The position numbers and the translations under genes are program-made. A DNA stretch of 32,000 bases from Candidatus Nanoarchaeia archaeon (GTDB lineage: Archaea > Nanobdellota > Nanobdellia > Woesearchaeales > JANQNC01), in NCBI GenBank assembly GCA_028279745.1, contig JANQNC010000001.1:1230001-1262000 (forward strand), in the 5' to 3' direction. Below, in pieces: positions 4,562-31,877 of this stretch. The notes below the pieces were generated by a model. That model did not search any database. It saw only the letters and a program-made list of their open reading frames with translations, and was not told the origin of the DNA. The first letter of the stretch is position 1; each line of letters opens with the position of its first letter.

Positions 4562-5194
4562 TCATATTGAGTACGTAGCGTGGGTTTTAGCAGTCTCAAT
4601 AAAAGATTTCATCTTATCATGAGATTTTTCCCCTTTGTGCTTTTCAACACCTGAGCTTACATCAACACCGTAAGGTTTTACAGAAATGATCGCTTCAGCA
4701 ACATTATTGGGGTTTAATCCACCGGCTAAAAAGATATTCTTACTGTACTCTTTAGCTTTCTTTGCCAAATCCCAATCGAAAGTCTTGCCAGTGCCTCCCA
4801 TCTTGCCTTCAACATGAGCATCTAAAACAAAAGCATCAACTGAACTATAATTTGGTATTACAGAAAGGCTTTGTTCATCCTTAACTCGGATAGCTTTCCA
4901 AACTTCCAAATGTGAAAAGTTGTTGCAGTATTCAGGAGATTCATTACCGTGGAATTGAAGAACGTCTAACCCTGCCATTTCCGAGATTGTTCTGACTATG
5001 CTAACATCTTCATTTACGAATAAACCAACCTTTTTCGGTCTTCTTACATTATGGCTTATTCCATTTGCCATAGAAGGAGTTATGAATCTAGGACTCCTAT
5101 TGTAAAATACAAAACCAAGATAATCTGCACCTAATTTAGCCGCATCTTGTCCATCTTTAATGTTTGTGATGCCGCATACTTTTACTTGAGTCAT
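4562..5194 (-). CDS. trpF: phosphoribosylanthranilate isomerase
   Basis: From MTQVKVCGITN: ..DAAKLGADYLGFVF...SPRFI.., LQFHGNE, DAFVLDA...GGTGKTFDW, FLAGGLNPNNV, GVDVSSGVE. The start is trimmed from the track value (5302) to the ATG at 5194. That ATG lies 22 nt downstream of a TATA box (5217-5224), and the family begins there. Confidence 0.85.
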   Translation of the reverse strand: MTQVKVCGITNIKDGQDAAKLGADYLGFVFYNRSPRFITPSMANGISHNVRRPKKVGLFVNEDVSIVRTISEMAGLDVLQFHGNESPEYCNNFSHLEVWKAIRVKDEQSLSVIPNYSSVDAFVLDAHVEGKMGGTGKTFDWDLAKKAKEYSKNIFLAGGLNPNNVAEAIISVKPYGVDVSSGVEKHKGEKSHDKMKSFIETAKTHATYSI

Positions 5195-5216
5195 ATAATT
5201 AGGAATAAACATGTTG

Positions 5217-5238: not shown

Positions 5239-5247
5239 TTTTAAATA
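5239..5247 (+). promoter_or_regulatory. TATA-like box for the 5271 gene
   Basis: TTTTAAATA, 23 nt upstream of the ATG at 5271. Confidence 0.45.
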
Positions 5248-5568: not shown

Positions 5569-5577
5569 TTTTATATA
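5569..5577 (+). promoter_or_regulatory. TATA box for the membrane protein gene
   Basis: TTTTATATA, 22 nt upstream of the ATG at 5600. Confidence 0.55.
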
Positions 5578-6022: not shown

Positions 6023-6471
6023 AGAGAAACAAAAGTCTTGATGGCTTTGATTATCTCTTCATCGTTTTTGTAAGGCATTGTGAGAATCCCATTTATCTCT
6101 TGTTGGCTTGCTTCTGCTAAAGTGTACAAGAAAGGATTTGTAACTTTTATACTCTCTTTAAGCAAGTTTGAATATCTTTCACTAAACGCTTTAGAATCAT
6201 TAACGAAAACAGTTAACTTATCCAGTTCAGGAAACTGTTCACTTTCTGCAACAGAAAGGATTTCTTCAATATAAAAATCGTTGTTTATTGTTTTAAGGGT
6301 GTTTTTTCTGTAGATAGAAACTATTTCACCCCTTTCAGCGCCAGCGTCATAATCAATCTTGAAAGCCTCATTTTCTCCCTCATATCTTCTTGGACTTTGA
6401 ACTGGAGGAACTTCTTTAAGGAAAATTCCTGTAAACTCTGCAGCTTGAAATGCTAGTTTTGTTAGGTTCAT
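6019..6471 (-). CDS. hypothetical protein (150 aa)
   Basis: ATGA-type 4-nt overlap with the upstream gene. It is the last gene of the 8287->6019 operon. No family recognised. Confidence 0.55.
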   Translation of the reverse strand: MNLTKLAFQAAEFTGIFLKEVPPVQSPRRYEGENEAFKIDYDAGAERGEIVSIYRKNTLKTINNDFYIEEILSVAESEQFPELDKLTVFVNDSKAFSERYSNLLKESIKVTNPFLYTLAEASQQEINGILTMPYKNDEEIIKAIKTFVSL

Positions 6472-7235
6472 CTTCTCGTTAATTCTTGATAGATATCGCT
6501 TATTGTAAGTGGGTTTACCACCCAGTTTCTTAGGTTTATTTTCTTTTCTAGTTTTCCGTCTGAGTGTTGTACGTATCCTAAAGGTTTGAACCTTGGATCA
6601 TTTTTTGATGTTAATGAGTTATCGTTCTCAAGTATCGCTTCTTTTATTTCCCACTGTGGATCAAGTTGTTCTATGTTTATCAGATAAGACATAGGGTTCA
6701 TTGTTCTATCTGATCCATCAATCAAGTTATTTGCAGTTTCGTAGTTGCTCCATGAATCTCCTTGTTTTACCTGTAACCAGGCATGCGGTCCTTTATTTTT
6801 ACCATCATCTTTAATTCCGTAAGCAACTCTTACATTTTTTAATAGATCTGGTCGGTTTTCTTTTTCTGCTATGTGCCTAAAGTTAGTAAATGTGTAAATC
6901 GAAAAGAATAAGCAGTCAGCTTCTCCTTCTTTTGCCAGATTAGCTTTACGTTGAGTACTAAATGGAATCTCTTTCACTTCTAAAAACTTAGAAGTTATGG
7001 CGTGGGCGGTTTTTAGGTAAGTTAATGCAAGATCCTTTTCTTTTGTGTCTTTGAAGTCTAGTTGCCCCAATATTTTGTCGGTGTTTGTTGTCTTTACTAT
7101 CTCTTCTTTTTCAGTATTTACTGTTTGAATCAACTTGTTAGTCGCAAGGTAAAGCAGGGGAGTTGGAGAATAATTTAGAATAAAACCTAAACCTAAAATT
7201 CCTATTCCAATTTTTATCTTATTTTTTAATTTCAT
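6468..7235 (-). CDS. membrane-anchored transglutaminase-like (papain-fold) protein
   Basis: N-terminal anchor KIKIGIGILGLGFILNY. Core-like pattern EADCLFFSIYTF...GPHAWLQVKQGDSWSNYETA (Cys ... HAW.xV ... acidic). SD AGGTGA. 4-nt overlap with the methyltransferase gene. Confidence 0.6.
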   Translation of the reverse strand: MKLKNKIKIGIGILGLGFILNYSPTPLLYLATNKLIQTVNTEKEEIVKTTNTDKILGQLDFKDTKEKDLALTYLKTAHAITSKFLEVKEIPFSTQRKANLAKEGEADCLFFSIYTFTNFRHIAEKENRPDLLKNVRVAYGIKDDGKNKGPHAWLQVKQGDSWSNYETANNLIDGSDRTMNPMSYLINIEQLDPQWEIKEAILENDNSLTSKNDPRFKPLGYVQHSDGKLEKKINLRNWVVNPLTISDIYQELTRR

Positions 7236-7972
7236 TTCTTCACCTTTGCTGTCAGTAAATTATATCTGTAAGGTACTGTAATTTTATCTGGTTGAGTGTC
7301 TAACAGATTGTTTAACTTAGTCATGAAGTTATCTCTATACTCTTCAGGCATGTTAATAACCCAAGACATAGTAGAAACAAGATTAGCATAATCCTCTTTA
7401 CTGAATTCTAATTCAGAACGGTAAACTTTTTTATCTACTTTATTGAATTGGTCACTGTTTTCGATATCATCTTGGATAAAACCTAATGATCTTTTTTTGC
7501 TGAAGTCAGGACAGTTTCTGAAAAACAATTTTTTAACATTACTCAAAAGCTCAGTCTTTTCATACTCTTGAGCTTTCCAAAGAACAGCAAGATAGCCATC
7601 ATTTTTTAACAATTTGTTTGCTTTTTTGTATGCTACTTTGGGATCAACCCAGTGCCAAGCCTGAGCAGAAGTTATAACATCAAAACTATTTTCTGAAAGA
7701 AGAGTATCTTCAAAAGAACTCTTTATGTAAGCAACATTGTATAAATGGGACGTGTTTTGTTTTGCTATGTCGATCAAATCTTGACTTATATCTAAGCCTA
7801 TGATGTCGCATCCTTTTTCAGCAAGCGCTTTTGTTGCTTTGCCTGTGCCGCAACCGACTTCTAAAAAAGTAGTTCCAAGCTTTGCTACATCTTCAATGAC
7901 TTCATTAACATAGCCAGTCCTAGCGGAATCGTAAAGTTTTCCAATAGTCCCGAATGTTCTTTTTAGGTCCAT
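7232..7972 (-). CDS. class I SAM-dependent methyltransferase
   Basis: Motif I FLEVGCGTGKATKALAEKGCDIIGLDIS. Also FDVITSAQAWHWV and LLKNDGYLAVLW, as in the Methyltransf_11/25 families. Confidence 0.85.
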   Translation of the reverse strand: MDLKRTFGTIGKLYDSARTGYVNEVIEDVAKLGTTFLEVGCGTGKATKALAEKGCDIIGLDISQDLIDIAKQNTSHLYNVAYIKSSFEDTLLSENSFDVITSAQAWHWVDPKVAYKKANKLLKNDGYLAVLWKAQEYEKTELLSNVKKLFFRNCPDFSKKRSLGFIQDDIENSDQFNKVDKKVYRSELEFSKEDYANLVSTMSWVINMPEEYRDNFMTKLNNLLDTQPDKITVPYRYNLLTAKVKK

Positions 7973-8380: not shown

Positions 8381-8421
8381 TGGTCAAATTTAATGGTTTG
8401 AGGTGGTCGAATTTGGGGTTT
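8381..8421. repeat. two imperfect ~19-bp direct repeats upstream of the 8287 operon promoter
   Basis: tggtcaaatttaatggttt (8381-8399) and tggtcgaatttggggttt (8404-8421), starts 23 bp apart. On the minus strand they lie about 50-90 nt upstream of the TATA box at 8327-8334. Confidence 0.5.
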
Positions 8422-9010
8422 ACGGGGTGTCTAGACGCCCTTTGATGAGTTTCATAGAACTGTCCCACATGTGTTGGGTGTATGGGCAACAGAAGGGTCT
8501 GTTGGTTAATTTCTCATCTTTTGACCAAAAGTCGTAAAAGAATTTAGGATTCATGCCCATGGAATCTGCTGCAGCTTTGAATGTGTCAATGCTTGTGCTA
8601 ACCCAAAGAAAATCTAGGTCATTGAAGACTGCCATCTCCTTACATTCTTTGAAAGGTGTATTGTCTCCTAGTAACCAGTTGTCATGTACTGCAATATAAT
8701 TGACTATCTGTTTAGATTTTTCTTTGTCATAGTTAACTTTTTTTAAGATATCTTTAGCAATGTATGAACCTTCCCGCATATGAAACACTTTTATGTCTTT
8801 ACCTTTGATGTGAGGATTCTTTTCTTTAACTTTGGAGTAACCAACATCGTGAAGAATAACTATGGGCAAAAGAAGTTTTTTATCAAGAGATTCTATATCT
8901 GCGATTTTGTTGGATTCTTTTTGCATCCACTCAATATGGGGGATGTCAAATATTCTTCCTTTTTCATAATATGGCTTTGCCAGCTCCCATATCTTGTCGT
9001 AGGTTGTCAT
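8420..9010 (-). CDS. HD-domain metal-dependent phosphohydrolase
   Basis: PHIEW...LLLPIVILHDVGY...IAVHDNW gives the H...HD...H(D) pattern of the HD superfamily. Confidence 0.8.
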   Translation of the reverse strand: MTTYDKIWELAKPYYEKGRIFDIPHIEWMQKESNKIADIESLDKKLLLPIVILHDVGYSKVKEKNPHIKGKDIKVFHMREGSYIAKDILKKVNYDKEKSKQIVNYIAVHDNWLLGDNTPFKECKEMAVFNDLDFLWVSTSIDTFKAAADSMGMNPKFFYDFWSKDEKLTNRPFCCPYTQHMWDSSMKLIKGRLDTP

Positions 9011-10481: not shown

Positions 10482-10489
10482 TATATAAA
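10482..10489 (-). promoter_or_regulatory. TATA box for the 10456->8420 operon
   Basis: Minus-strand TTTATATA, 25 nt upstream of the ATG at 10456. Confidence 0.55.
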
Positions 10490-11807: not shown

Positions 11808-11815
11808 TATATAAA
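11808..11815 (-). promoter_or_regulatory. TATA box for the 11769->10522 operon
   Basis: Minus-strand TTTATATA, 38 nt upstream of the ATG at 11769. The leader carries GGAGGA. Confidence 0.5.
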
Positions 11816-11825
11816 TCTGATGAAA

Positions 11826-12101
11826 TCATTTAAAACCTATTCTTTTTAAAAAATAATCTTCAGATGATAAAGCTTCAAGTTTAAGTTTTTGAGTCTTAGC
11901 TAATTTTTTTACTTCTTTAGCTATGTTGGTTTTCTTCTGGTTTTTGCTTATTTCAAAAGATGCAATCTTATCAGTAAGCTTATCAAACTTGTAACTGTCA
12001 TCCACTTCTTTTATTTGAGCCAGGTAAGGTTTGATAACTTTAGACCTAACTTGATTATGTTTGTATTGCTCGGTGCAGTATAGGATCTTTAGAGTTGTCA
12101 T
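11826..12101 (-). CDS. small cytoplasmic protein (91 aa), paralog of 17615-17908 (C-terminal SEDYFLK motif)
   Basis: ATGA overlap with the upstream gene. Shares I.ILY....H, KPYL, FEISK and KLKLEALSSEDYFLKRI with the 97-aa protein at 17615-17908. Confidence 0.6.
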   Translation of the reverse strand: MTTLKILYCTEQYKHNQVRSKVIKPYLAQIKEVDDSYKFDKLTDKIASFEISKNQKKTNIAKEVKKLAKTQKLKLEALSSEDYFLKRIGFK

Positions 12102-13519
12102 TTTTTCCTCTTGTATCTGTCTTCATCAGTTACTTTTTTCTTTTTACTCTCAATCATTCTTCCGTAGAGAGTCAAACCTATGTAAGGTTCATAGTTTTTA
12201 TTCTCATCAATCTTAACTCCTGCTTTAAGGATTCCTGTGCGTTTGCTAGCTGTTATGTTTGGGATGTATTCAATTACTTTTCCTCTTGACATAACTACAT
12301 CAAGACCTGCTCCGATATGCTGATTTCTGAATATGGATGTGTGAGGAAATATTTCTGCACCAACTAAAGCATCATCTCCCTTTTTGAAAGCATGAATAGA
12401 ATAAGCTTGGTTTCCTGAAGTGTATCTTAACATTGCACCAGGCAATACAAAGTTTCTTATCGCAAAAAACAATCTTAGATCATCATTAAGCTTGAAACCA
12501 TTAGTTGCAGTAAAAGCTGCTTTGAACTCTTTATTATCAGAACCTAGTTTTAACCTTAAGCCACTATACTTAAGTGCTAGGTGAGTGAAGTTTCTATCAT
12601 AGTATTCTCCAAATCCTGTTTCGTATCCTAATCCGAGAGGGATTTTTACAAAAGGTATTCTTAATTTTTTAGTATTAGGGTATACTGCTCCTCCCATAAT
12701 GAAACCTGTTTTATCCGGAATGATGTTGACATCCAGAGAAAGCTTTTCCCATGATATATCAAATAGATAACAAGCCATATCATCTTGAGATCCAAATAAA
12801 AGATTTATTGAAGTATTGTTTTTCTTCTTCTTTGGAGGTTTTGCGAACTTTGCAGATTTTGGTTTATCGTTACGATGGGTAAAAATAAGAAGTTCATAAG
12901 AAAGCATTACGTGGTTGAATTTAGAGTATGTGAGCCAGTCAACATTAAGTTTTCGATCTATAATTCCAAACGAATATCCAATCTTAAATCGGTGTTCAAG
13001 TCTAACTGTCGGCTTATTAAATTCATCATGTTTTTTTGAACGATCTGTTTCAGCCACTAAATATACAGAAAGAAGTTTAGCGTCTTCTTTATTGTTTTTT
13101 TTGATTGTTTTTGATTCTAATTTGTCTCCTGTGTTTAGATCAAAACTTTCTATTTTTTGAGAGTGAGTTAGATCAATATGGCTTATAACGCCTTCAATCC
13201 CAAACCCTTTTTTTGAAAATTTGTTATTCTTTCCGCTGATAAAAGGGAACCAATCAACATTTAAACCTACCATGTAGTCTTTTCCATCTATTCCATAAGA
13301 GACTTTGCTGATCAAGTCAGAACCTGCTTTTGCACCTATGCCTATCTTACCCATGTCAAGATTAAGAGATGAGGTTATAGGCATAAAATTAGCTTTTGTT
13401 TCACCATTGTGGTAAACACCTACACCTAAACCAAAATCCTTCTTTTGCTCTTTTGCAAAAAGACTGCCAACAAGAAGTCCTAAACTTATTGCAGCAGCTT
13501 TGATTAAACTCATTTTCAT
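12098..13519 (-). CDS. secreted all-beta protein (473 aa) with outer-membrane beta-barrel-like sequence texture
   Basis: Signal peptide MKMSLIKAAAISLGLLVGSLFA. There are many 8-12-residue strands of alternating polarity with Gly/Asn/Asp turns and aromatic residues: FGLGVGVYHNGE, KIGIGAKAGSD, YMVGLNVDWFPF, HLALKYSGLRLKLGSD, FKAAFTATNGFKL, LRLFFAIRNF, AYSIHAFKKGD, HIGAGLDVVMS, YIGLTLYGRM. A Lys-rich linker sits mid-protein. The start is set at the ATG at 13519, which forms an ATGA overlap with the upstream stop. Confidence 0.6.
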   Translation of the reverse strand: MKMSLIKAAAISLGLLVGSLFAKEQKKDFGLGVGVYHNGETKANFMPITSSLNLDMGKIGIGAKAGSDLISKVSYGIDGKDYMVGLNVDWFPFISGKNNKFSKKGFGIEGVISHIDLTHSQKIESFDLNTGDKLESKTIKKNNKEDAKLLSVYLVAETDRSKKHDEFNKPTVRLEHRFKIGYSFGIIDRKLNVDWLTYSKFNHVMLSYELLIFTHRNDKPKSAKFAKPPKKKKNNTSINLLFGSQDDMACYLFDISWEKLSLDVNIIPDKTGFIMGGAVYPNTKKLRIPFVKIPLGLGYETGFGEYYDRNFTHLALKYSGLRLKLGSDNKEFKAAFTATNGFKLNDDLRLFFAIRNFVLPGAMLRYTSGNQAYSIHAFKKGDDALVGAEIFPHTSIFRNQHIGAGLDVVMSRGKVIEYIPNITASKRTGILKAGVKIDENKNYEPYIGLTLYGRMIESKKKKVTDEDRYKRKK

Positions 13520-13836
13520 AACCAATCTTTGACTTGCATATACTGCTTAAGAATTTCCAACACTTGATCTCTTCTGTAAAGCTCAGGTGTTCTGAAACGA
13601 TCAGAGGTGTTTGGAGGTATAGTGTTAATCTCAATCATGTATTGGTTTTTTACTATCCTGTAATCTAACGATAGAGTGGGAGCATTGTCTTTAGCTTTTC
13701 TCTCAAATCTAGCGTGTTTTTTGTGTTGTTGGTATAGTGGTTTATCTGTTTTGTTCTCAAAACCTAATTCTTTCAGTCCTAAGTGTAGAAGATTTCTATC
13801 TTCCAACCTTTTTGCTTTTTGTATTATTTTTTTCAT
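13516..13836 (-). CDS. small protein (106 aa) whose C-terminal half resembles the C-terminal Mg-ATP strand region of ATP-grasp enzymes
   Basis: LSLDYRIVKNQYMIEINTIPPNTSDRFRTPEL compared, from memory, with Ddl/RimK-type RIDV....G.FYLLE.NT.PGMT..S..P. The protein is far too short for a complete ATP-grasp fold. SD-like AGGGGA upstream. Confidence 0.4.
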   Translation of the reverse strand: MKKIIQKAKRLEDRNLLHLGLKELGFENKTDKPLYQQHKKHARFERKAKDNAPTLSLDYRIVKNQYMIEINTIPPNTSDRFRTPELYRRDQVLEILKQYMQVKDWL

Positions 13837-13851
13837 TTTTTAGTGTCCCCT

Positions 13852-14481
13852 TTAGTTTAGTAGAGAGTCCAGGTTTTGTGTTCTATCCGTAAGGTTTGCT
13901 TTATATGCTAATTTTAACAGTCCTGGTGCTTTTTTTCTAATGTCTTGTTTTATTGCTGCGTATTTGTTTTCTGCAAACTCCCAGACATTTCTAGATTCTT
14001 CGCTTTCCCTTCTGTTGCGGTAAATAAAATTGTTTAACCGTACGCAATCTACGGTGTTTCTCCAGACTTCGCATTTAATTTTTGTTCCTTCTTTAGTTTC
14101 TATGTTCATATCCATCCATCTATGGTGGTTTAAGTATACTATGTCTCCTGAAATTCTTTTGAAATCAAAATTGTCTCTTTCAACAGCTAAAGTATATTTT
14201 GTTCCGTCATCTAACTCTCCTGAGATCTGTAGGTCTATTTCATATTCCCCTTTTGCATTTGCTCGATCTTTTCTCTCAACAACCTTTATGTCAAGTTCAT
14301 TAGTGTTGTTGGCAAATTGTTCAATTTCTGTTATGTATTCATTTACTGGAATGTTTTTAGTTGTGATGGGTAAACTAAATGCAAGCTCTTCTAAAAATGG
14401 TTTGGGATTACAGTTTTTAACTCCGAATGATGCAGCTGCTGCTAACCAAACTGCAATTAGTAGGGATTTTTTTGCATTCAT
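13852..14481 (-). CDS. secreted protein, conserved-signal-peptide family member 3 (209 aa)
   Basis: The start is trimmed to MNAKKSLLIAVWLAAAASFGVKNC (ATG at 14481, 2 nt after the upstream stop, SD GAGG). Shares EYI....F...EL.IK with the neighbouring paralog. Confidence 0.7.
   Translation of the reverse strand: MNAKKSLLIAVWLAAAASFGVKNCNPKPFLEELAFSLPITTKNIPVNEYITEIEQFANNTNELDIKVVERKDRANAKGEYEIDLQISGELDDGTKYTLAVERDNFDFKRISGDIVYLNHHRWMDMNIETKEGTKIKCEVWRNTVDCVRLNNFIYRNRRESEESRNVWEFAENKYAAIKQDIRKKAPGLLKLAYKANLTDRTQNLDSLLN
14416..14481 (-). repeat. conserved signal-peptide cassette, copy 3
   Basis: tttaactccgaatgatgcagctgctgctaaccaaactgcaattagtagggattttttt... The ~50-nt core differs from the copies at 15088-15155 and 15644-15709 at only a few positions, whereas the rest of the genes is diverged. 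Confidence 0.85.
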
Positions 14482-14483
14482 TT

Positions 14484-15155
14484 TTAGTGCCTCTGTATTC
14501 CTGTGATATTTGCGAAAACCATCTTTTCTATGTCGGGATATTGTACCCCTAACCATTTCCTAAATCTGCTCAGTTCTCTACCTCCAATATCTATAATTTC
14601 TTTATGTTCTTCAGTTTTGTAGTCTATTGGGAGTTTGTATTCAATGTTGTTTATCACTGCATCTGTGACTGCGTAATCAGAGCGGTGCTGAAGGTAAGAA
14701 TAGCTTGTGTTACGAGATAAGACGTCTAAACAAAGCGTATGACTTTTGTGGTATAAAGAGTAATCTAGTAGAAGATTGTACTCAGTTTTCAGTAGATTGA
14801 TATTGTTAATTCTCACTTTAGACCTCCCAAAGGTGCCAGGTTTGTATTCTGTTTTAATATTTAGTTCTGGATATTGTGCTTTGAAACTATCAAAAGCAGA
14901 AATGTATTCAAGCAATCTAACATTTTTGTAATCCAGCTTTTTTAAGTTTACTTTAGGAAGTTTAGGTTTTTTCTTTGCTTTAGGAACTTCTTTAACTTTC
15001 TTTTCAAGCTTCTCTCTTCTTTCTAACTCTTCACTGAACGCTTCATGAAGAATCTTTTTTGTTTCATCAATGGGGGGTGCACATTGTTTAACTCCGAATG
15101 ATGCAGCTGCTGCTAGCCAGACTGCGATTAGTAGTGATTTTTTTGCTATGCTCAT
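14484..15155 (-). CDS. secreted protein, conserved-signal-peptide family member 2 (223 aa)
   Basis: MSIAKKSLLIAVWLAAAASFGVKQC. ATGA overlap with the upstream gene. GGAGG upstream. Confidence 0.7.
   Translation of the reverse strand: MSIAKKSLLIAVWLAAAASFGVKQCAPPIDETKKILHEAFSEELERREKLEKKVKEVPKAKKKPKLPKVNLKKLDYKNVRLLEYISAFDSFKAQYPELNIKTEYKPGTFGRSKVRINNINLLKTEYNLLLDYSLYHKSHTLCLDVLSRNTSYSYLQHRSDYAVTDAVINNIEYKLPIDYKTEEHKEIIDIGGRELSRFRKWLGVQYPDIEKMVFANITGIQRH
15088..15155 (-). repeat. conserved signal-peptide cassette, copy 2
   Basis: tttaactccgaatgatgcagctgctgctagccagactgcgattagtagtgattttttt... Confidence 0.85.
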
Positions 15156-15709
15156 TTTTTCAGGGCCTCCGCTTTTTTAACGTATGTATGTATCGAGTCT
15201 GCCTGTTTTCCTGCTACCCGTATCATAACTAATTTTGCATAGTTGTTTTCTTCTTTTGAGACTTGTTCTGTTAGGTACTCTGCCAGATTTATGTGCCACA
15301 TTGCGATATTGAGATAGTGGTTTATTTGTTGCTCTTTTGTAAAGTAGTCCTGTTTTATTTCAGGTCTAGTTTTTATGAATTTTTTTTCTGTCTTAATCGC
15401 TTCTCTTTCTATAAGCTCTTCTAAGTTCTTTTCGATAGCTTCATCTGTCTCTAACCTATGCAGTTTTTCAACAGCATTCAAAAAATTTTGTTGTATCTTA
15501 GGCAAATAATCATCTTTCTGAGTGTTATAATTTTTCTTTTGAGCTTTTTTTTTCTTTACTGCAAAAACTTTTTTTACTTTTTTCTCAAGTTCTTGTTCAA
15601 CTTCAGGAAGAGGTTTTAGAGTACTTGGATCTGTTTTACAATATTTAATCCCAAATGATGCAGCTGCAGCTAGCCAAACTGCGATTAGTAGGGATTTTTT
15701 GAAGTTCAT
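15152..15709 (-). CDS. secreted protein, conserved-signal-peptide family member 1 (185 aa, Lys/Glu-rich helical mature part)
   Basis: MNFKKSLLIAVWLAAAASFGIKYC. The mature part is predicted helical and charged. Confidence 0.7.
   Translation of the reverse strand: MNFKKSLLIAVWLAAAASFGIKYCKTDPSTLKPLPEVEQELEKKVKKVFAVKKKKAQKKNYNTQKDDYLPKIQQNFLNAVEKLHRLETDEAIEKNLEELIEREAIKTEKKFIKTRPEIKQDYFTKEQQINHYLNIAMWHINLAEYLTEQVSKEENNYAKLVMIRVAGKQADSIHTYVKKAEALKK
15644..15709 (-). repeat. conserved signal-peptide cassette, copy 1
   Basis: tttaatcccaaatgatgcagctgcagctagccaaactgcgattagtagggatttttt... Confidence 0.85.
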
Positions 15710-15717
15710 TTTTTTCG

Positions 15718-16125
15718 TTAAAGTCTCTTTTGATACAAAACTTCTATCTCGCTTGCATACTTATATCCGACTCTTACATCTGGCTCTGCAAATGAAACTG
15801 CCCGTTCACTAAGTGGATATTTAGGGTATTTAGACATACTTATCCTGGTGTCCTTATCAATAAGAAGATCCAGGGTTTCTTTGGTTGTTGCCCCGTCATC
15901 AAGTATATTCAAAGCTAAAATTCGGCCACAATCTGTTTTAACTTTTATTATATATTTTGAGTCTTTGGTATACTTTTCCTCAATTACTTTTCCTTGAATG
16001 CTGTTTTTTGTTTTGTATCCAGGAGTAGACATCTTATGAGTTAGTTTAGCAGTTAAGCCTGCAAGCACTATAGCAGTTGCAATTATGCATCTGTTAAGAT
16101 ATTTGTCAAACCTTTTTTTATTCAT
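15718..16125 (-). CDS. N-terminally anchored small beta-rich protein (135 aa)
   Basis: Signal anchor CIIATAIVLAGLTAKL after a basic N-terminus. SD GGAGA upstream. Confidence 0.6.
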   Translation of the reverse strand: MNKKRFDKYLNRCIIATAIVLAGLTAKLTHKMSTPGYKTKNSIQGKVIEEKYTKDSKYIIKVKTDCGRILALNILDDGATTKETLDLLIDKDTRISMSKYPKYPLSERAVSFAEPDVRVGYKYASEIEVLYQKRL

Positions 16126-16161
16126 TTTTATCTCCTATTGTGTTTTTCATTTTAGTTAACC

Positions 16162-16455
16162 TCATGAATATTTTTCTGCTAGTTCTTCTAAGTTAGTGCT
16201 TAGTTTGTTCATTGCAGTCATTACTGGTTCACCGAAAGATTCTCCGCCATAACTTTTGATTTCTTTAGCCATCCTTTTGTAAAAAACATCTTTTAAGAGA
16301 CCTGCTTGTGGTGCTTTTCTTTTCAGATAGTTCATTATCTTTTGGGGTGCTTGTTTAATTCTGTCATTTGATGTTGTATCTTCATTTACCCAAATCATTG
16401 TGTTTCTTATGTATTCAGAACTTTGTTCGCAGATGCTTTTTAGGTTATTTTTCAT
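16162..16455 (-). CDS. hypothetical cytoplasmic helical protein (97 aa from ATG)
   Basis: The track start (16473) is TTG. The ATG at 16455 lies 4 nt after the upstream stop, with GGTGAGAG upstream. Confidence 0.5.
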   Translation of the reverse strand: MKNNLKSICEQSSEYIRNTMIWVNEDTTSNDRIKQAPQKIMNYLKRKAPQAGLLKDVFYKRMAKEIKSYGGESFGEPVMTAMNKLSTNLEELAEKYS

Positions 16456-16459
16456 TGTC

Positions 16460-16828
16460 TTATCTCTCACCAAAGTCTTGTAATTTTCTGTTTAATCTGT
16501 ATAATTTTACACCTTTCTTGTGATCTTCAACTTCTTCCCACTTGTATTCTCCCCAGTTAAAACTAACTAATCCATCCATGTCTTTCATCGCTTCGTCTCT
16601 ATTTTGGTATGCTGCATTTGCTACTAGAACTTCAGCGATCTGCTCTTTTGTGTATAGAGGTGTGTTTCTAGAACCGAACATTAGTTTGATCTCTGATAAT
16701 GCACTTGTTAACATGCTTTGTTTGCCTATTAACATTTTTTCTAGCTGTCTAAGTGTAGCACATTCTTTGTTCTGTGCAGGAACTAGTGTGTTTGTTGTGC
16801 TTAGTATTGCTTTCATGTAGTTTTCCAT
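16460..16828 (-). CDS. hypothetical cytoplasmic protein (122 aa from ATG)
   Basis: The ATG at 16828 (MENYMKAIL) is preceded by AAGGAGGA at optimal spacing. The longer track start lacks an SD. Confidence 0.55.
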   Translation of the reverse strand: MENYMKAILSTTNTLVPAQNKECATLRQLEKMLIGKQSMLTSALSEIKLMFGSRNTPLYTKEQIAEVLVANAAYQNRDEAMKDMDGLVSFNWGEYKWEEVEDHKKGVKLYRLNRKLQDFGER

Positions 16829-16841
16829 TTTATTTTCCTCC

Positions 16842-17231
16842 TTAATTAAATTCAAAAGGGGTTGTAGATAGTACTGATTCTAGGTTGTATATTTTTACTG
16901 TTTCTGATTTGTTTCCTTCTCTATCTACTGCATATACCTCAAAAGTATAAGGCATGTTGTCTCTTACTTCTCTTGGAACTACAAAAGAAGCGCTGTGTTT
17001 TAGTTTGCATCTGTTTACTAGTTTTACTTTTTTGTCTTCACAAACTGCATAAGCAGTCATTCCAACTGCGTTGTTGTCCTTAAAATCTATGTATTTACCG
17101 GATGCATCCTCTAAGACAGGTATTTTTTTATGCTGCTCTGATTCTACTTTTGTTTTTTCAGTTGTTGAACATCCAGTAAACCCAAAATATAATGTTGCGA
17201 TTGTTGCTATAGTTGCTAGTACTTTTTTCAT
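16842..17231 (-). CDS. lipobox-type putative lipoprotein (129 aa), tandem paralog B
   Basis: MKKVLATIATIATLYFGFTGC (lipobox-like FTGC). GGAGGA SD. The first 44 coding nt plus the SD are identical to the upstream paralog. Confidence 0.7.
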   Translation of the reverse strand: MKKVLATIATIATLYFGFTGCSTTEKTKVESEQHKKIPVLEDASGKYIDFKDNNAVGMTAYAVCEDKKVKLVNRCKLKHSASFVVPREVRDNMPYTFEVYAVDREGNKSETVKIYNLESVLSTTPFEFN

Positions 17232-17245
17232 TTTTTATTCCTCCT
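17188..17245 (-). repeat. 58-bp perfect direct repeat, copy 1 (SD, ATG and signal-peptide codons of lipoprotein B)
   Basis: tataatgttgcgattgttgctatagttgctagtacttttttcattttttattcctcct is identical to 17575-17632. Confidence 0.95.
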
Positions 17246-17618
17246 TAAACTTTTGATAACTGTCTACAAATTCTCCAGAAATCTGAGTTAGTTTCCCCCT
17301 TATGTCTATGTCAACCTCACTCTTGAATATGGGTTTTTTGGTTATTACTCTGACACTATCTCCTAATTTGAACGGATCTGCTTTTCCGGAACAGACGTAA
17401 ACGTTACCTTCTTTTGTTCTAATTTCGTATGCGTTGATTTCGCTCATTATGCTTCCATTACCTGTGCCCCATAATGATGCGTTTTTATTGTGTATGCTGT
17501 ATTTGTTAGTGACTCTTCCAACAAGGGGATTTTCAGAATGTGTTGCTTTGTTTTCAGAACATCCTAATCCGAAGTATAATGTTGCGATTGTTGCTATAGT
17601 TGCTAGTACTTTTTTCAT
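17235..17618 (-). CDS. lipobox-type putative lipoprotein (127 aa), tandem paralog A
   Basis: MKKVLATIATIATLYFGLGC (lipobox-like GLGC). GGAGGA SD. ATGA overlap with the upstream gene. Confidence 0.7.
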   Translation of the reverse strand: MKKVLATIATIATLYFGLGCSENKATHSENPLVGRVTNKYSIHNKNASLWGTGNGSIMSEINAYEIRTKEGNVYVCSGKADPFKLGDSVRVITKKPIFKSEVDIDIRGKLTQISGEFVDSYQKFKEE

Positions 17619-17632
17619 TTTTTATTCCTCCT
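17575..17632 (-). repeat. 58-bp perfect direct repeat, copy 2 (SD, ATG and signal-peptide codons of lipoprotein A)
   Basis: Identical to 17188-17245. The copies are 387 bp apart. Confidence 0.95.
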
Positions 17633-17908
17633 CAAGCTTTTCAAGAAATAATCTTCACTTGTTAGTTTTTCAAGAGTGATTCCTTTTTTTTCAGCAAAAG
17701 ATTTGATTCTTATTTGGTTTTTATAGGGGGTTACATAGCTTTCAATCTTGAATACTGAAACTTTTTCAGTTACACTTTCATGGCGAACTGCTTTTCTAAG
17801 GTTTGCAGATTCACCTAGAACAGTCATTAAATAAGGTTCAACAAGCTTGTCCAGTATTGGGTTAAAGTCATGTTTTTTGCTGTCGTAAAATATGGCAATT
17901 CCTACCAT
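17615..17908 (-). CDS. small cytoplasmic protein (97 aa), SEDYFLK family, first gene of operon A
   Basis: ATG at 17908 preceded by a G7 SD-like tract. Paralog of 11826-12101 (EPYL, FKIES, ITLEKLTSEDYFLKSL). Confidence 0.6.
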   Translation of the reverse strand: MVGIAIFYDSKKHDFNPILDKLVEPYLMTVLGESANLRKAVRHESVTEKVSVFKIESYVTPYKNQIRIKSFAEKKGITLEKLTSEDYFLKSLRRNKK

Positions 17909-17942: not shown

Positions 17943-17963
17943 GGTAGAAGTAATTAGATGTAG

Positions 17964-18005
17964 TATTTATATGATTTCCATATAAATTATAGTGAACATT
18001 ATAAA
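17964..18005 (-). promoter_or_regulatory. conserved promoter/operator module, copy A (heads operon A, 17908->11826)
   Basis: The plus strand reads tatttatatgatttccatataaattatagtgaacattataaa. On the minus strand this is TTTATAATGTTCACTATAATTTATATGGAAATCATATAAATA. 39/42 identical to copy B. Confidence 0.75.
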
Positions 18006-18050
18006 AAATGCCCGAAGTAGAAGGGTGCAATGGTGATTTGCTTCTTCGGG
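18001..18050 (-). terminator. hairpin plus T-run terminator-like structure after operon B
   Basis: cccgaag(ta)gaag ... cttcttcggg forms 11 bp with a 2-nt bulge at 18011-18050. On the minus strand it is followed by CATTTTTTAT. It lies 27 nt after the stop of 18077-18796. Confidence 0.55.
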
Positions 18051-20683: not shown

Positions 20684-21586
20684 TCATTTCCTCACAGTCA
20701 GTCTTTTGTATTCTGCTTTTTGGCCGTTGTTAACTCCGATTATGTAAGTTCCAGCTCCAACAGGTAGACCGTTCTTGTTTGTTCCATCCCAAACTTTCTG
20801 TCCTTTCAGATCTCTAATCATCTTTCCATGGATGTCGAATACTTTAGCATCGATCCCGTTGTGATTAATGTTGATTTGAGAACCTGATTTTGCAGGGTTT
20901 GGACTAACATTCATACCTTTGTAAATTCTTCTTGGAATGTTTTCAATATTTGCTGGAGGCAGAACCGTTACTACCGTAGATTCGGTTGTGTTTTTGCCTT
21001 CATTATCTGTTATTGTTAATTTGGTTAAATAGGTTCCAGGTTCTGAGTATCTGAATGTTACGGTGTGGTCACCTGCCATTCCGGCGTCTATCTCTCCATC
21101 ATTATCGTGGTCCCATCTGTAGACTATGCTAGGATCAGATCCTGTTATGCTGAATTCTACATCTAAAGGTGCTTGACCTGTAGTCTCTGTTGATCCTACT
21201 ATTCCAGGCGTTCCTGCCTCTCCTTCTGCTTTTTGTGCTGCGATTACAACTGTTTCGCTTGTTTGTTTTCCTTCATTATCTGTAACTGTAACTGTAGCTA
21301 TGTATGCTCCTGGTTCTTCATATCTGTTTGATATTGTGTGGGGGCCGTTTGCGGTTGCATCCACGTTTCCATCTCCGTCAAAGTCCCATTCGTACTTTAC
21401 TATGTTGCCATCAACGTCAAGGCCTGTTGCGGTAAATAAGGTATTTAGCGGCGCAACGCCTGATTGGTTTATTGCGTTAACTGTAACGTATGGTGCTATA
21501 TTATCTGTAGAACTTGCTCTTGCTGCAGGTGTTAAACCTAACACTGCTGACAAAACAAGTGCTGTTAATGTTTTTGCTTTTTTCAT
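20684..21586 (-). CDS. secreted protein with two PKD domains and a T9SS-type/FlgD-Ig-like C-terminal domain
   Basis: Signal peptide MKKAKTLTALVLSAVLGLTPAARA. Two PKD-like repeats: GVAPLNTLFTATG...YEWDFDGDG...Y.EPGAYIATVTVTDNEG, and GQAPLDVEFSITG...YRWDHDNDG...YSEPGTYLTKLTITDNEG. The C-terminus VSPNPAKSGSQINI...AKVFDIHGKMIRDL...WDGTNKNGLPVGAGTYIIGV resembles the Por/T9SS sorting and FlgD-Ig domains. G+C is visibly higher than in the neighbours. Confidence 0.8.
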   Translation of the reverse strand: MKKAKTLTALVLSAVLGLTPAARASSTDNIAPYVTVNAINQSGVAPLNTLFTATGLDVDGNIVKYEWDFDGDGNVDATANGPHTISNRYEEPGAYIATVTVTDNEGKQTSETVVIAAQKAEGEAGTPGIVGSTETTGQAPLDVEFSITGSDPSIVYRWDHDNDGEIDAGMAGDHTVTFRYSEPGTYLTKLTITDNEGKNTTESTVVTVLPPANIENIPRRIYKGMNVSPNPAKSGSQININHNGIDAKVFDIHGKMIRDLKGQKVWDGTNKNGLPVGAGTYIIGVNNGQKAEYKRLTVRK

Positions 21587-21633: not shown

Positions 21634-21657
21634 CTGAGTGGTGAATATACTATCTAC

Positions 21658-21699
21658 TATTTATATGTTTTCCATATAATTTATAGTGAACCTTATAAA
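21658..21699 (-). promoter_or_regulatory. conserved promoter/operator module, copy B (heads operon B, 21586->18077; also abuts the divergent AbrB-PhoU promoter)
   Basis: The plus strand reads tatttatatgttttccatataatttatagtgaaccttataaa. The core atagtgaac lies at 21683-21691, 15 nt from the TATA-like tatttatatg, the same spacing as in copy A. Confidence 0.75.
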
Positions 21700-25504: not shown

Positions 25505-25527
25505 AACAGCATCAGAAAAACTAGAAG

Positions 25528-25570
25528 TATTTATTCTAAATCCTTATAATTCATAGTGAACATTATAGAT
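25528..25570 (-). promoter_or_regulatory. conserved promoter/operator module, copy C (heads operon C, 25504->22580)
   Basis: The plus strand reads tatttattctaaatccttataattcatagtgaacattatagat. The 15-mer atagtgaacattata is identical to copy A. The TATA-like end lies 23 nt from the ATG at 25504. Confidence 0.7.
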
Positions 25571-25956: not shown

Positions 25957-25964
25957 TATTTAAA
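25957..25964 (-). promoter_or_regulatory. TATA-like box for the 25934 gene
   Basis: Minus-strand TTTAAATA, 22 nt upstream of the ATG at 25934. Confidence 0.5.
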
Positions 25965-27200: not shown

Positions 27201-27209
27201 TATATAAAA
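27201..27209 (-). promoter_or_regulatory. TATA box for aroE
   Basis: Minus-strand TTTTATATA, 22 nt upstream of the ATG at 27178. Confidence 0.55.
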
Positions 27210-27261: not shown

Positions 27262-27269
27262 TTTATATA
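27262..27269 (+). promoter_or_regulatory. TATA box for the 27292 gene
   Basis: TTTATATA, 22 nt upstream of the ATG at 27292. Confidence 0.55.
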
Positions 27270-27291: not shown

Positions 27292-27918
27292 ATGAATAAA
27301 AAATCTATCTTACTGGCAGTATGGCTAACGGCTGTAGCAACATTTGGAATCAGGAATTGTGAACTTGTGAGTGCAGTCAAACAAAAGGTTAACACAGTCA
27401 AACAAGAGAGAAAAGAAGCAGCTGATAAAAAGTTCGTTAACATCGAGTCCACTAAAAAAGCAGAAGAATTCTTTGAGGCATATGAGGGTTTTAATGTTAA
27501 AGGCAATTATAGAGGCAGAACGTGTAGATTTGAAGTAAATAGATCCTTTAACATGGCTATACGTTACAGCCCGAGGGACCATAATTATGATAAGGAACAT
27601 TATATCCAAACAACTTCGTGGGCGGAATGTGTCATGTATGATTACAATAATGACCTAAGACCTGATAGGTTAGATTTTACTATAAGAAATAGTGATAATG
27701 AGGTCTATACAGAAGGAACAAATCAAAATACTCTTATCAAAATGGCAAACAAGTTGGGTGAAACCACTTTTGTTGCGTATAGATCAAACTTGGACGAGTT
27801 TTCAAAACAAGAAATGAAAAAAATATTTAGAGATTCTGAAAAAGAGATGAAAGGAATTTACAATAAGCTTGGAGTTAGATCAAAACTGAGAAAGTATAGA
27901 TCTCCATTTAGGAGATGA
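27292..27918 (+). CDS. secreted protein, conserved-signal-peptide family member 4 (208 aa), dispersed copy on the opposite strand
   Basis: The start is trimmed to MNKKSILLAVWLTAVATFGIRNC (ATG at 27292, 22 nt downstream of TTTATATA at 27262-27269). Same FG[IV][KR]xC ending as the three tandem members. Confidence 0.7.
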   Translation: MNKKSILLAVWLTAVATFGIRNCELVSAVKQKVNTVKQERKEAADKKFVNIESTKKAEEFFEAYEGFNVKGNYRGRTCRFEVNRSFNMAIRYSPRDHNYDKEHYIQTTSWAECVMYDYNNDLRPDRLDFTIRNSDNEVYTEGTNQNTLIKMANKLGETTFVAYRSNLDEFSKQEMKKIFRDSEKEMKGIYNKLGVRSKLRKYRSPFRR

Positions 27919-27937
27919 AAAAAGATATTCTTTTTTT
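27919..27937. terminator. AT-only palindrome between convergent genes (bidirectional terminator candidate)
   Basis: aaaaaga-tat-tcttttt, with T-runs readable on both strands. It fills the 17-nt gap between the stops at 27918 and 27936. Confidence 0.4.
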
Positions 27938-29297
27938 ACTTTAACTTTAGATCTCCAATCTCTACTCTGAATGCTGCATCTGGATCAATATTGTGCTTTA
28001 CAAGATCTGCGAAGTATTGAGGCAGTCTTATAAAATGACTTGCATCTAAAGTAGCATCCGTATTCTTAATAATTATGTCGTAGTCTAGATCTTCTACTCT
28101 TTCGCTTGCAAGCTTTGTGGGATCGAAGAATACAATACCTAGTTTGGTTTCTCCATAATAATCATACATCTTAACACCCAATAGATACCTGTGCTCTGAT
28201 TCTGTTCTTGCTCCAAAATACCAACCTTCCAAATTTTTGTTTATAGGTTGTATAACTTCTTTAAGAGCATACGCTGAAAGAGCTGCAAAATCTGTACAGT
28301 CTCCAAATACTAGATTTTTATTCTTTTTGGAACCTAACATATTTTGTAAATATCCTTCGTCAGATCCATCTTTGTCTTGGCCATATTTCTGTATCCTGGA
28401 ACGTGAGAAATATTCAGAGAAGGCTATTGCTTCAGTCGCACTTAGTTTAGAAAGTTTCTCTTTAGCTTCTGAAGTGTCACTAACTCCAAGAAGATCAGTC
28501 ATCCTTTCTAGCGTAAGACTTCTTGTCAAAAATCTGTTTCGTATCCTAAGTTCGCTGCAGATATGGTCTAAACTCATATGTGGGTGAGAGTTCATCCAAT
28601 ATGCAAAGAAAGGGTCTTCTTTAGGAGCTTTATTTTTTAGAGATTCTGCTTCTTTTAATGTGTATAAACCTTTAAGCAAGCCAGCTCTGAATTCCATGAC
28701 CTTTTTTGAGATCATATGGGCTAACTTAAGCCTCTTACGATTACCTTCTTTTTGATCTTTTGGAAAGTCAATTCTGTCAAATGCTTTTTGTAGATTATTA
28801 TAGTTTGCAGTGAAAAAAAGATGAGATATTTTATGGTAGTGGTCTTTAAATGCAACCCCGTTATCTGTAAGATAATCAAATAGGTCATCCCATTGTTTTT
28901 TTAGGCTGTGATTTTCATCAACTTGCCAACCAGCTCCAAACTCTACGTTTCGGTTTATGCCCATCTTGAAACTTCGCCAGTCGCTTAATTTGTCATTCAG
29001 TGATTCGGGGATTATTGTACGGTCAAATCCAAGTGTTGGTTCTTCAAGCGCTCTGAGCAGAAGGAGATTGGAAGGAGTGTTTTTTAATTCATTTAGTGTG
29101 TATGTTCCTCTTTTCAGTCCGAAAAAAGCAGTATCTGGAACAACCCAGTCAATGGATGCGAACTTGTTGTTATCATATCTGTTAGATACGCTTTTGGTGT
29201 ACCCTTCACTAAAATGTTTTGTTAGGTCTTCACTATTTGTTCTTGTGCTTAATCCTAGTGCTGTGATAAGTGCTATTGTTAATATTTTTCCTTTCAT
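27936..29297 (-). CDS. secreted protein with C-terminal transglutaminase-like (papain-fold) domain, catalytic triad apparently intact
   Basis: Signal peptide MKGKILTIALITALGLS (ATG at 29297 with AGGTGA SD; the track start is GTG). The C-terminus FGDCTDFAALSAYAL...SEHRYLLGV...IVFFDPTKL matches the Cys/His/Asp core pattern G.C..FA.L ... H....V ... FDPT. Confidence 0.65.
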   Translation of the reverse strand: MKGKILTIALITALGLSTRTNSEDLTKHFSEGYTKSVSNRYDNNKFASIDWVVPDTAFFGLKRGTYTLNELKNTPSNLLLLRALEEPTLGFDRTIIPESLNDKLSDWRSFKMGINRNVEFGAGWQVDENHSLKKQWDDLFDYLTDNGVAFKDHYHKISHLFFTANYNNLQKAFDRIDFPKDQKEGNRKRLKLAHMISKKVMEFRAGLLKGLYTLKEAESLKNKAPKEDPFFAYWMNSHPHMSLDHICSELRIRNRFLTRSLTLERMTDLLGVSDTSEAKEKLSKLSATEAIAFSEYFSRSRIQKYGQDKDGSDEGYLQNMLGSKKNKNLVFGDCTDFAALSAYALKEVIQPINKNLEGWYFGARTESEHRYLLGVKMYDYYGETKLGIVFFDPTKLASERVEDLDYDIIIKNTDATLDASHFIRLPQYFADLVKHNIDPDAAFRVEIGDLKLK

Positions 29298-29302
29298 TTT
29301 TT

Positions 29303-31869: not shown

Positions 31870-31877
31870 TATATAAA
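31870..31877 (-). promoter_or_regulatory. TATA box for aroD
   Basis: Minus-strand TTTATATA, 22 nt upstream of the ATG at 31847. Confidence 0.55.

Follow-up and report, generated by a model that had tools for sequence, protein, structure and literature searches.

We analysed a run of twelve consecutive open reading frames (ORFs), here called operon A with the genes g1 to g12, located at positions 11826-17908 on the minus strand of a 32,000-nucleotide (nt) stretch of DNA (contig JANQNC010000001.1 of assembly GCA_028279745.1, positions 1,230,001 to 1,262,000); this whole stretch is referred to as the window and all coordinates are those of the window unless stated otherwise. The genes follow each other from 17908 to 11826 with 98.7% of the interval being coding, and the junctions from g1 to g12 measure -4, 3, 13, 4, 36, 8, -4, 2, 15, -4 and -4 nt. 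Gene calls in public collections settled the starts of g4 (16828; 122 amino acids (aa)), g5 (16455; 97 aa), g9 (14481; 209 aa) and g11 (13519; 473 aa), and with these starts we could confirm the layout given in a preliminary description of this DNA, i.e. twelve coupled genes in the order listed there, four ATGA stop-start overlaps and a widest gap of 36 nt. In a comparison over 10.3 kb, an independent Logan assembly proved 100% identical, with the same genes called. Clear GGAGG/AGGAG Shine-Dalgarno (SD) sites precede five of the eleven internal genes (g2, g3, g4, g6 and g8), the others showing partial or weaker sites or overlaps, so that the presence of GGAGG-type sites at several internal genes holds and the earlier wording that most of them have one is generous.

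We show all twelve genes of operon A being real and coding, because the ORF lengths are beyond chance and the codon-position composition resembles that of housekeeping genes. Given the local base composition, chance would yield an open frame of 91 or more codons with a probability of about 6e-4 and one of 473 codons with about 1e-17, and 12/12 ORFs display the order GC1>GC2>GC3 in guanine-plus-cytosine (GC) content of the three codon positions together with a purine-rich first position, as do trpF, aroE and aroD. Tight packing is found throughout the window, ATGA overlaps occurring at 7/30 other same-strand junctions and gaps of at most 15 nt at 19/30, which makes the tight coupling weak evidence for a stoichiometric apparatus; the step from stoichiometric coupling to an apparatus taken in the preliminary description does not carry far, since coupling of this kind is found elsewhere in the window as well.

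Operon A starts behind a 42-nt promoter module present in three copies, i.e. A (17962-18003, minus strand), B (21656-21697) and C (25526-25567), each standing before an orphan operon. In module A a conserved upstream core, GTTCACTATAATTTATATGGA, in which the palindrome TATAAWTTATA is found, is followed by a 3' TATA-like element, ATATAAATA, placed 55 nt before the ATG of g1. The module core GTTCACTATRAWTTATAWGGA has three matches in the window with zero expected, and a partial fourth copy of the core lies outside the window upstream of ilvC (flank sequence L137, ~6286-6306). In copy C the 3' element, AATAAATA, stands 23 nt from the ATG corresponding to leaderless geometry, and this spacing suggests the 3' element of the module probably being a TATA box. 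The upstream part with the palindrome TATAAWTTATA is probably the site of a regulator, and the repetition of the module at three orphan operons suggests that operon A is probably co-regulated with its two neighbours. Divergent from module B, a plus-strand gene (21686/21743/21779-22603; the start is ambiguous and the Logan call truncates the domain) encodes a protein whose N-terminal DNA-binding domain is AbrB/MazE-like and which is a candidate regulator of the 42-nt module. A scan for sigma-70 promoters gave counts equal to those in shuffled sequences and was uninformative.

The upstream limit of the operon is marked by a hairpin (CCCGAAG...CTTCGGG) followed by a T6 run at 18002-18050 on the minus strand, seen in the sequence and in RNA folding, which is likely the terminator of the upstream operon B isolating the start of operon A. 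Neither a hairpin nor a T-run was found 3' of g12, so that transcription may continue beyond 11826. The following gene has its ATG at 11769, a GGAGG SD site and its own TTTATATA box at 11808-11815 (minus strand) 38 nt upstream, which is plausibly an independent promoter; a 3' boundary at 11826, being unterminated and leaky, is plausible given the separate TATA box of the next gene.

Predicted products and leader cassettes

The first and the last gene, i.e. g1 (17615..17908; 97 aa, with a G7 SD-like run upstream) and g12 (11826..12101; 91 aa, overlapping g11 by ATGA), encode cytoplasmic proteins of one family, which on their sequences are true paralogs: they share 27% identity and an invariant SEDYFLK and align with a Smith-Waterman z of 14.9, which bears out the two SEDYFLK-family proteins named before. 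An AlphaFold2 model of g1 built from the two-sequence alignment reaches a predicted local distance difference test (pLDDT) score of 78.6 and a predicted template modelling (pTM) score of 0.71 and suggests a beta-alpha-beta-beta-alpha-beta-beta fold. Searching with this model in Foldseek returned only neighbours resembling eL22, a eukaryotic/archaeal ribosomal protein, with a best E = 5.6e-4 and a probability of up to 1.0, and no structural match was obtained in BFVD. The modelled SEDYFLK protein and eL22 have in common an alpha/beta fold in two layers that spans about 100 residues; they differ in that the template modelling (TM) scores are mostly 0.35-0.5 with a root-mean-square deviation of 5-7 Å and 14-19% identity, without any signal at sequence level. 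Taking TM > 0.5 plus sequence or profile support as the mark of membership in the eL22 fold, the resemblance seen with the model is a generic fold likeness and not membership. A SEDYFLK profile run against 5.8e9 clusters retrieved only g1 and g12 themselves, and against the PDB its best match was the N-terminal region of ERI1 at E = 0.43. Further members were sought among the small ORFs of the window, and none was significant; the search included operon C's first gene, which likewise starts MVG..YD.

Three additional products are devoid of an export signal, i.e. g4 (16460..16828; 122 aa, AAGGAGG SD), g5 (16162..16455; 97 aa) and g10 (13516..13836; 106 aa), so that g1, g4, g5, g10 and g12 are cytoplasmic-looking, all of them being small and basic. 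For g10 the label 'ATP-grasp-tail-like' had been proposed; no Pfam, NCBIfam or PDB match was obtained, and the likeness consists of the short string IEINTIPP recognised by eye only, so we do not retain it. The exported products are basic as well (isoelectric points of 8.4-9.6). The protein g6 (15718..16125; 135 aa) carries a predicted N-terminal hydrophobic anchor or signal, CIIATAIVLAGLTA, without lipobox or class III motif, in accordance with its earlier description as N-terminally anchored. Class III signal peptides, i.e. [KR][GA] followed by a hydrophobic stretch, do not occur at the N-termini of the operon A products. In total, the sequence rules support the previously proposed mixture of seven exported or anchored and five cytoplasmic products.

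Two groups of exported products have their 5' ends in common. The predicted lipoproteins g2 (17235..17618; 127 aa, AGGAGG SD, ATGA overlap with g1; MKKVLATIATIATLYFGLG/C with cleavage before Cys) and g3 (16842..17231; 129 aa; LYFGFTG/C with cleavage before Cys) start with MKKVLATIATIATLYFG(LG/FTG)C and share a 5' cassette of 76 nt including the SD site, 93% identical in DNA and leading into unrelated mature parts. Applying a PROSITE PS51257-type lipobox rule, i.e. an n-region with positive charge, then a hydrophobic h-region and, in the first 40 residues or so, [LIVMFWSTAG]2-[LIVMFYSTAGCQ]-[AGS]-C, only g2 (LYFGLGC) and g3 (LYFGFTGC) pass, every other product failing, which agrees with the two lipobox proteins counted before. 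The two Logan contigs of SRR20820740 covering the window break at this duplicated cassette, at ~17217 / 17603, where a 35-nt perfect repeat is present; the duplication thus causes short-read assemblies to fragment within operon A.

The second group comprises g7 (15152..15709; 185 aa, leader KKSLLIAVWLAAAASFGIKYC, mature part rich in Lys and Glu and probably helical), g8 (14484..15155; 223 aa, leader ending FGVKQC, GGAGG SD, ATGA overlap with g7) and g9 (13852..14481; 209 aa, leader ending FGVKNC), all predicted to be exported. These share a 21-residue leader, KKSLLIAVWLAAAASFG[VI]K[YQN]C, the DNA of SD site and leader being 82-85% identical over 78 nt. A fourth copy of the leader, KKS[IL]L[IL]AVWL.A.A[ST]FG[VI][KR]NC, is located 12 kb from the trio (27292-27918, plus strand) on an unrelated mature domain and behind its own leaderless TATA promoter. 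In both leader families DNA similarity collapses right after the Cys codon, and the mature parts lack significant similarity to one another both in the group of g7-g9 with the fourth protein (z <= 2.5) and in the pair g2/g3; a faint full-length alignment of g8 with g9 is the only one in the leader family. In the 21 codons of the leader, the tandem copies show 4-5 synonymous versus 1-2 non-synonymous differences, tandem and distal copies are separated by 5-7 synonymous differences and 7-8 conservative replacements, and 18-20 of the 21 codons following the leader differ. The predominance of synonymous differences among the tandem copies followed by abrupt divergence indicates that the leader peptide is under purifying selection through the Cys, and judged from these codons its conservation is not merely due to recent copying. 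The earlier term of a secreted paralog family with a conserved signal peptide is therefore to be divided: three proteins share the leader, and paralogy does not extend past it, g7-g9 being, as far as their sequences tell, a common leader joined to mature domains that are unrelated or have diverged beyond recognition.

The leader Cys is the sole Cys of g7, which argues against an intramolecular disulfide, and the leader positions -1 ([YQN]) and -2 (K/R) break the lipobox rule in g7-g9. Lipidation of a +1 Cys is carried out by dedicated enzymes, Lgt in bacteria and AliA/AliB in archaea; in the 32-kb window and about 13 kb of flank no AliA or Lgt was seen. According to predictions, lipobox proteins are widespread in Euryarchaeota and DPANN (PMC12462473), and g2 and g3 would thus fit an archaeal host. 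Compared with archaeal Sec lipoproteins, i.e. the AliA/AliB substrates of Haloferax volcanii (PMC12462473), g2 and g3 likewise have a Lys-rich n-region, a hydrophobic h-region and a [F/G][L/T]G/C lipobox within 21 residues, and the probable host would likewise be archaeal and rich in lipoproteins. g2 and g3 differ in that the mature domains of these predicted lipoproteins are without relatives, and the g7-g9 leader with its [VI]-K-[NQY]-C departs from the lipobox.

Surface-protein families built on a conserved 5' cassette are represented by the Vlp/Vsp-type variable lipoproteins of Mycoplasma and the paralogous lipoprotein families of Borrelia, which resemble operon A in having near-identical SD/signal DNA followed by divergent mature regions and in forming tandem arrays. 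Unlike these, operon A forms one co-transcribed operon without repeats, phase-variation tracts or invertible elements, its probable host is archaeal, and its leader appears to be kept by selection at peptide level beyond gene conversion alone. Leaders routing proteins into a specific pathway are known from bacteria as YSIRK-G/S, KxYKxGKxW and ESPR. They share with the leader described here that a long and specific leader is found on otherwise unrelated exported proteins, including the distal copy at 27292-27918, and differ from it in that it has no motif similarity to them (NCBIfam negative) and ends in an invariant Cys. No accessory secretion genes for the leader were identified.

The largest product, g11 (12098..13519; 473 aa), has a typical signal peptide, MKMSLIKAAAISLGLLVGSLFA/K, ending LFA/K with predicted cleavage before Lys, no further hydrophobic segment and no transmembrane helices. 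With 8.9% Gly, 11% aromatic residues and many amphipathic beta segments it appears to be of beta type, the amphipathic-strand measure being no higher than for a PKD-domain protein encoded in the same window. Its C-terminus ends YIGLTLYGRMIESKKKKVTDEDRYKRKK in a Lys-rich tail, the only strand-like motif lying 18 residues from the end, and an aromatic-ended C-terminal beta-signal is absent. An AlphaFold2 model of the mature protein from the single sequence without alignment (pLDDT 30, pTM 0.21) contains hairpins only and was left out of the fold search. Neither Pfam nor NCBIfam gave a match at E <= 0.1, including all models of outer-membrane protein (OMP) families, and the best PDB match had E ~1. 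Of the description as 'beta-barrel-like secreted', we can thus keep the predicted secretion and beta-richness, and the barrel label finds no support in any tool, considering the lack of profile matches and of a beta-signal and the pLDDT of 30.

Bacteria have operons in which a beta-barrel of the outer membrane is encoded together with lipoproteins or with subunits that are secreted, e.g. Slam, curli CsgG/E/F/A/B, Fap amyloid with FapF and chaperone-usher pili. Operon A is similar to these in encoding several predicted Sec substrates and a large, secreted and beta-rich protein near the 3' end; it is different in matching none of the family profiles and in its probable archaeal host, which perhaps has no outer membrane, and g11, for which a barrel topology is hypothetical, carries a Lys-rich tail in place of an aromatic beta-signal. 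Two secreted paralogs of about 460 aa encoded at 27936-30709 were considered as relatives of g11 and rejected as no relationship was found.

Relatives and host

We found all twelve families to be new at the level of sequence. Significant matches for operon A products were absent from Pfam, PHROGs, PADLOC and NCBIfam (the PADLOC scan covering all products except g2 and g3), the sole PADLOC match at E <= 0.01 being a partial one of g7 to Cas8e (13.7 bits, E = 0.0086), which is at chance level. PDB sequence searches with seven products (g4, g5 and g7 left out) were negative, all products form singleton clusters at 90% identity, and the phage and plasmid collections gave no matches. Scanning GTDB species genomes, JGI metagenomes and IMG/VR for patterns revealed no relative of g11, of the leader family or of the SEDYFLK family. 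For g11, an exhaustive phmmer scan of 1.84e9 (1.84 billion) representatives gave 0 matches and a word-indexed search of 5.8e9 clusters gave none either. The 473-aa form of g11 itself is clustered beneath an unrelated, mis-assigned 37-aa aquaporin fragment serving as representative, which is a database artefact; the self-match is missing because g11, being mis-clustered, is invisible to representative-based searches, and the fragment was rejected as a homolog. Among 133 loci of GTDB and JGI anchored on TrpF, none has operon A homologs in synteny.

None of the twelve products is matched by models of S-layer or surface-protein domains (Pfam, NCBIfam), and no assembly ATPase, PilC or FlaJ domain, by which a type IV pilus or archaellum would be recognised, was found in the cluster with the same two libraries. 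Neither an ATPase nor a permease nor any other energy-coupling component was found in operon A. The earlier statement that no part matches a known archaeal secretion, pilus or S-layer component is upheld across Pfam, NCBIfam, PHROGs, PADLOC and the PDB.

The host is very probably archaeal. The window is 90.6% coding and 9.4% non-coding, and all twelve of its TTTAWATA boxes are intergenic, examples being those at 261-268, 5240-5247, 5570-5577, 10482-10489, 25957-25964, 27201-27208, 27262-27269 and 31870-31877. Eight of the twelve end 22-25 nt before start codons lacking an SD site, including those of aroD, aroE and the AsnC gene, and two are located 38-39 nt before SD-led starts; an A-rich sequence resembling a B recognition element (BRE) precedes most boxes, and the flanks beyond the window show the same TATA-box placement. 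The count of the octamer is not above chance, its placement being the significant part. In archaea, leaderless starts have their promoter box ~22-26 nt upstream with ribosome-binding sites on internal genes, compared to ~10 nt in bacteria (PMC6028130). SD-less first genes at this spacing from a BRE/TATA-type box and SD sites on internal genes are what the window contains, and the agreement with the published archaeal leaderless geometry supports the archaeal assignment. The genome is small (~1.3 Mb, 34% GC).

Interpretation of the locus

We lean towards operon A being a taxonomically restricted, co-regulated cluster of orphan surface-protein genes from a poorly sampled small-genome archaeon. 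This suggests a model according to which transcription would start at the regulated BRE/TATA-type module, three operons being switched together by one DNA-binding regulator, and the internal genes would, by their geometry, be translated via SD sites or ATGA stop-start coupling as elsewhere in the genome. Seven products, i.e. two lipoproteins, one anchored protein, three leader-bearing proteins and the large beta-rich g11, would be exported via Sec, and five small basic proteins would stay inside, two of these being the SEDYFLK paralogs with a compact alpha/beta fold. The exported set may have been built in evolution by placing two leader cassettes repeatedly in front of mature domains that are unrelated or diverge very fast, and it might function as a variable, co-regulated surface set for contact with a host, a partner or a substrate rather than as a conserved machine. 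A lineage-specific cluster of exported proteins with shared leaders in a small archaeal genome is a familiar kind of locus, and no new mechanism is shown by it.

Several points weigh against this interpretation. Collection-wide homolog searches are valid for g11 and for the SEDYFLK pair (g1, g12), and the orphan status of g2-g10 derives from the four libraries of hidden Markov models (HMMs), the PDB (minus g4, g5 and g7), the singleton clusters and the pattern scans for the leader. The calls of export signals are rule-based, made from sequence rules. The domain is assigned from promoter geometry, the window containing no informational genes, and the nearest GTDB relatives of TrpF (4562-5212, minus strand), Omnitrophota among them, are all bacterial with 49-51% identity; a bacterial-type YqeG-family phosphatase passing the NCBIfam cut-off is encoded next door. 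The TrpF loci comprise 58 from GTDB, all bacterial, and 75 from JGI metagenomes without taxonomy, none exceeding 51% identity, from which we conclude that the lineage is without a sampled close relative; the bacterial-like TrpF may reflect either horizontal acquisition or the isolation of the lineage. Despite these bacterial relatives, the archaeal setting proposed before is backed by the promoter geometry.

The bacterial TrpF relatives and the YqeG-family phosphatase would favour a diderm bacterium of an unsampled lineage as host, operon A then being an ordinary set of OMP and lipoprotein/periplasmic genes, together with the canonical lipoboxes, the hairpin and T-run terminator and a sorting domain of type IX secretion system (T9SS) type on the PKD protein. 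A bacterial host was adopted provisionally on the TrpF relatives and dropped after the TATA-box positions had been mapped: the TTTATATA boxes are fixed 22-25 nt from SD-less starts versus ~10 nt in bacterial leaderless genes, A-rich BRE-like sequence precedes them, and a CDP-alcohol transferase scores best, if weakly, as archaetidylinositol-phosphate synthase. With no OMP family model matching g11 and no C-terminal aromatic beta-signal on it, we regard this reading as improbable. No hallmark of an integrated archaeal virus, plasmid or other mobile element was found either, so the view of operon A and the orphan block at ~6-26 kb as the remnant of such an element with envelope or host-modifying proteins has little probability. 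It draws on the long one-strand run of short overlapping orphan genes, the repetition of the promoter module as in viral gene blocks and a PIN toxin-like gene a few kb off, and archaeal viromes are dominated by orphans. Pfam and PHROGs revealed no integrase, capsid, portal, terminase or Rep, however, there are no IMG/VR, phage or plasmid matches, no tRNA, no flanking direct repeats and a flat GC content, and the genes of the block share TATA/leaderless promoters with aroD and aroE, with a copy of the module core upstream of ilvC.

That the twelve products form one envelope apparatus, with g11 as channel or platform, the lipoproteins and leader proteins as subunits and the cytoplasmic proteins as chaperones or regulators, is a reading that draws on the genes forming one transcription unit, with four stop-start overlaps, in which seven exported and five cytoplasmic products occur in a fixed order, the SEDYFLK pair brackets the operon and three consecutive genes share a dedicated leader. 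We consider it unlikely, as coupling is the genomic norm here and carries no signature of stoichiometry, no conservation or co-occurrence is demonstrable with homologs not found, an ATPase, membrane permease or other energy-coupling component is lacking, the mature domains sharing a leader are unrelated, unlike the subunits of known fibres, and the beta-barrel proposed for g11 is putative (pLDDT 30). It is hardly conceivable that the ORFs, in part or as a whole, are artefacts of AT-rich sequence without coding function, to which the absence of homologs for any product might point: this is effectively ruled out by ORF lengths far past chance and a codon-position composition equal to that of housekeeping genes, by correctly placed SD sites and stop-start overlaps, by a leader peptide kept through synonymous changes, by the significant similarity of the SEDYFLK pair and by the confident AlphaFold2 model for g1. 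A very improbable reading, finally, is that operon A encodes an outer-envelope module of a double-membraned small archaeon, in which g11 would be a true beta-barrel and the leader KKSLLIAVWLAAAASFG[VI][KR]xC would act as a Cys-dependent signal of a new kind, differing from the lipobox, for sorting or lipidation. If this were true, g11 would be the first membrane beta-barrel in Archaea and the leader would route lineage-specific proteins to the outer layer.

For the preferred reading as a surface-protein gene cluster, operon A and its two co-regulated neighbours would, if the products are truly at the cell surface, represent a compact inducible surface toolkit of an unsampled archaeal lineage, and in small-genome archaea such genes are expected to mediate contact with a host or partner. 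A 21-residue leader selected up to a non-lipobox Cys could be a new archaeal sorting or anchoring signal, archaeal lipoprotein biogenesis having been discovered only recently, and a large secreted, beta-rich protein encoded alongside lipoproteins bears on the question which proteins populate archaeal outer membranes. For now, operon A is a further block of archaeal genomic dark matter.

Neighbourhood of the operon

The chromosomal flanks contain a tandem AsnC-type regulator (293-1237), a radical-SAM/SPASM enzyme, trpF, aroE and aroD within the window and ilvD and ilvC just outside, the GC content being uniform between the operon A region and these flanks, and neither Rfam nor tRNA scans returned a match in the window. 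Between trpF and aroE (5200-26200, ~40 genes) nearly all genes are without a Pfam match and have host-like GC content and promoters, the exceptions being a class I methyltransferase (7232-7972), an HD-domain protein (8420-9010) and the PKD protein. The latter (20684-21586, minus strand) is encoded by the first gene after module B and is a predicted secreted protein with two PKD domains and a T9SS-type Por_Secre_tail (TIGR04183, 36 bits vs a cut-off of 23), a bacterial-type sorting domain that is odd for a probably archaeal genome. The two adjacent secreted paralogs encoded between aroE and aroD (27936-29297 and 29303-30709, minus strand) have ~450-470 aa, are 30% identical and match no family. 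Just outside the start of the window (flank sequence L137, 8183-8863, minus strand) the radical-SAM/SPASM gene and the tandem AsnC regulator are adjoined by a gene for a 226-aa protein, which weakly resembles tRNA-dependent cyclodipeptide synthases (E = 1.2e-6, short of the cut-off).

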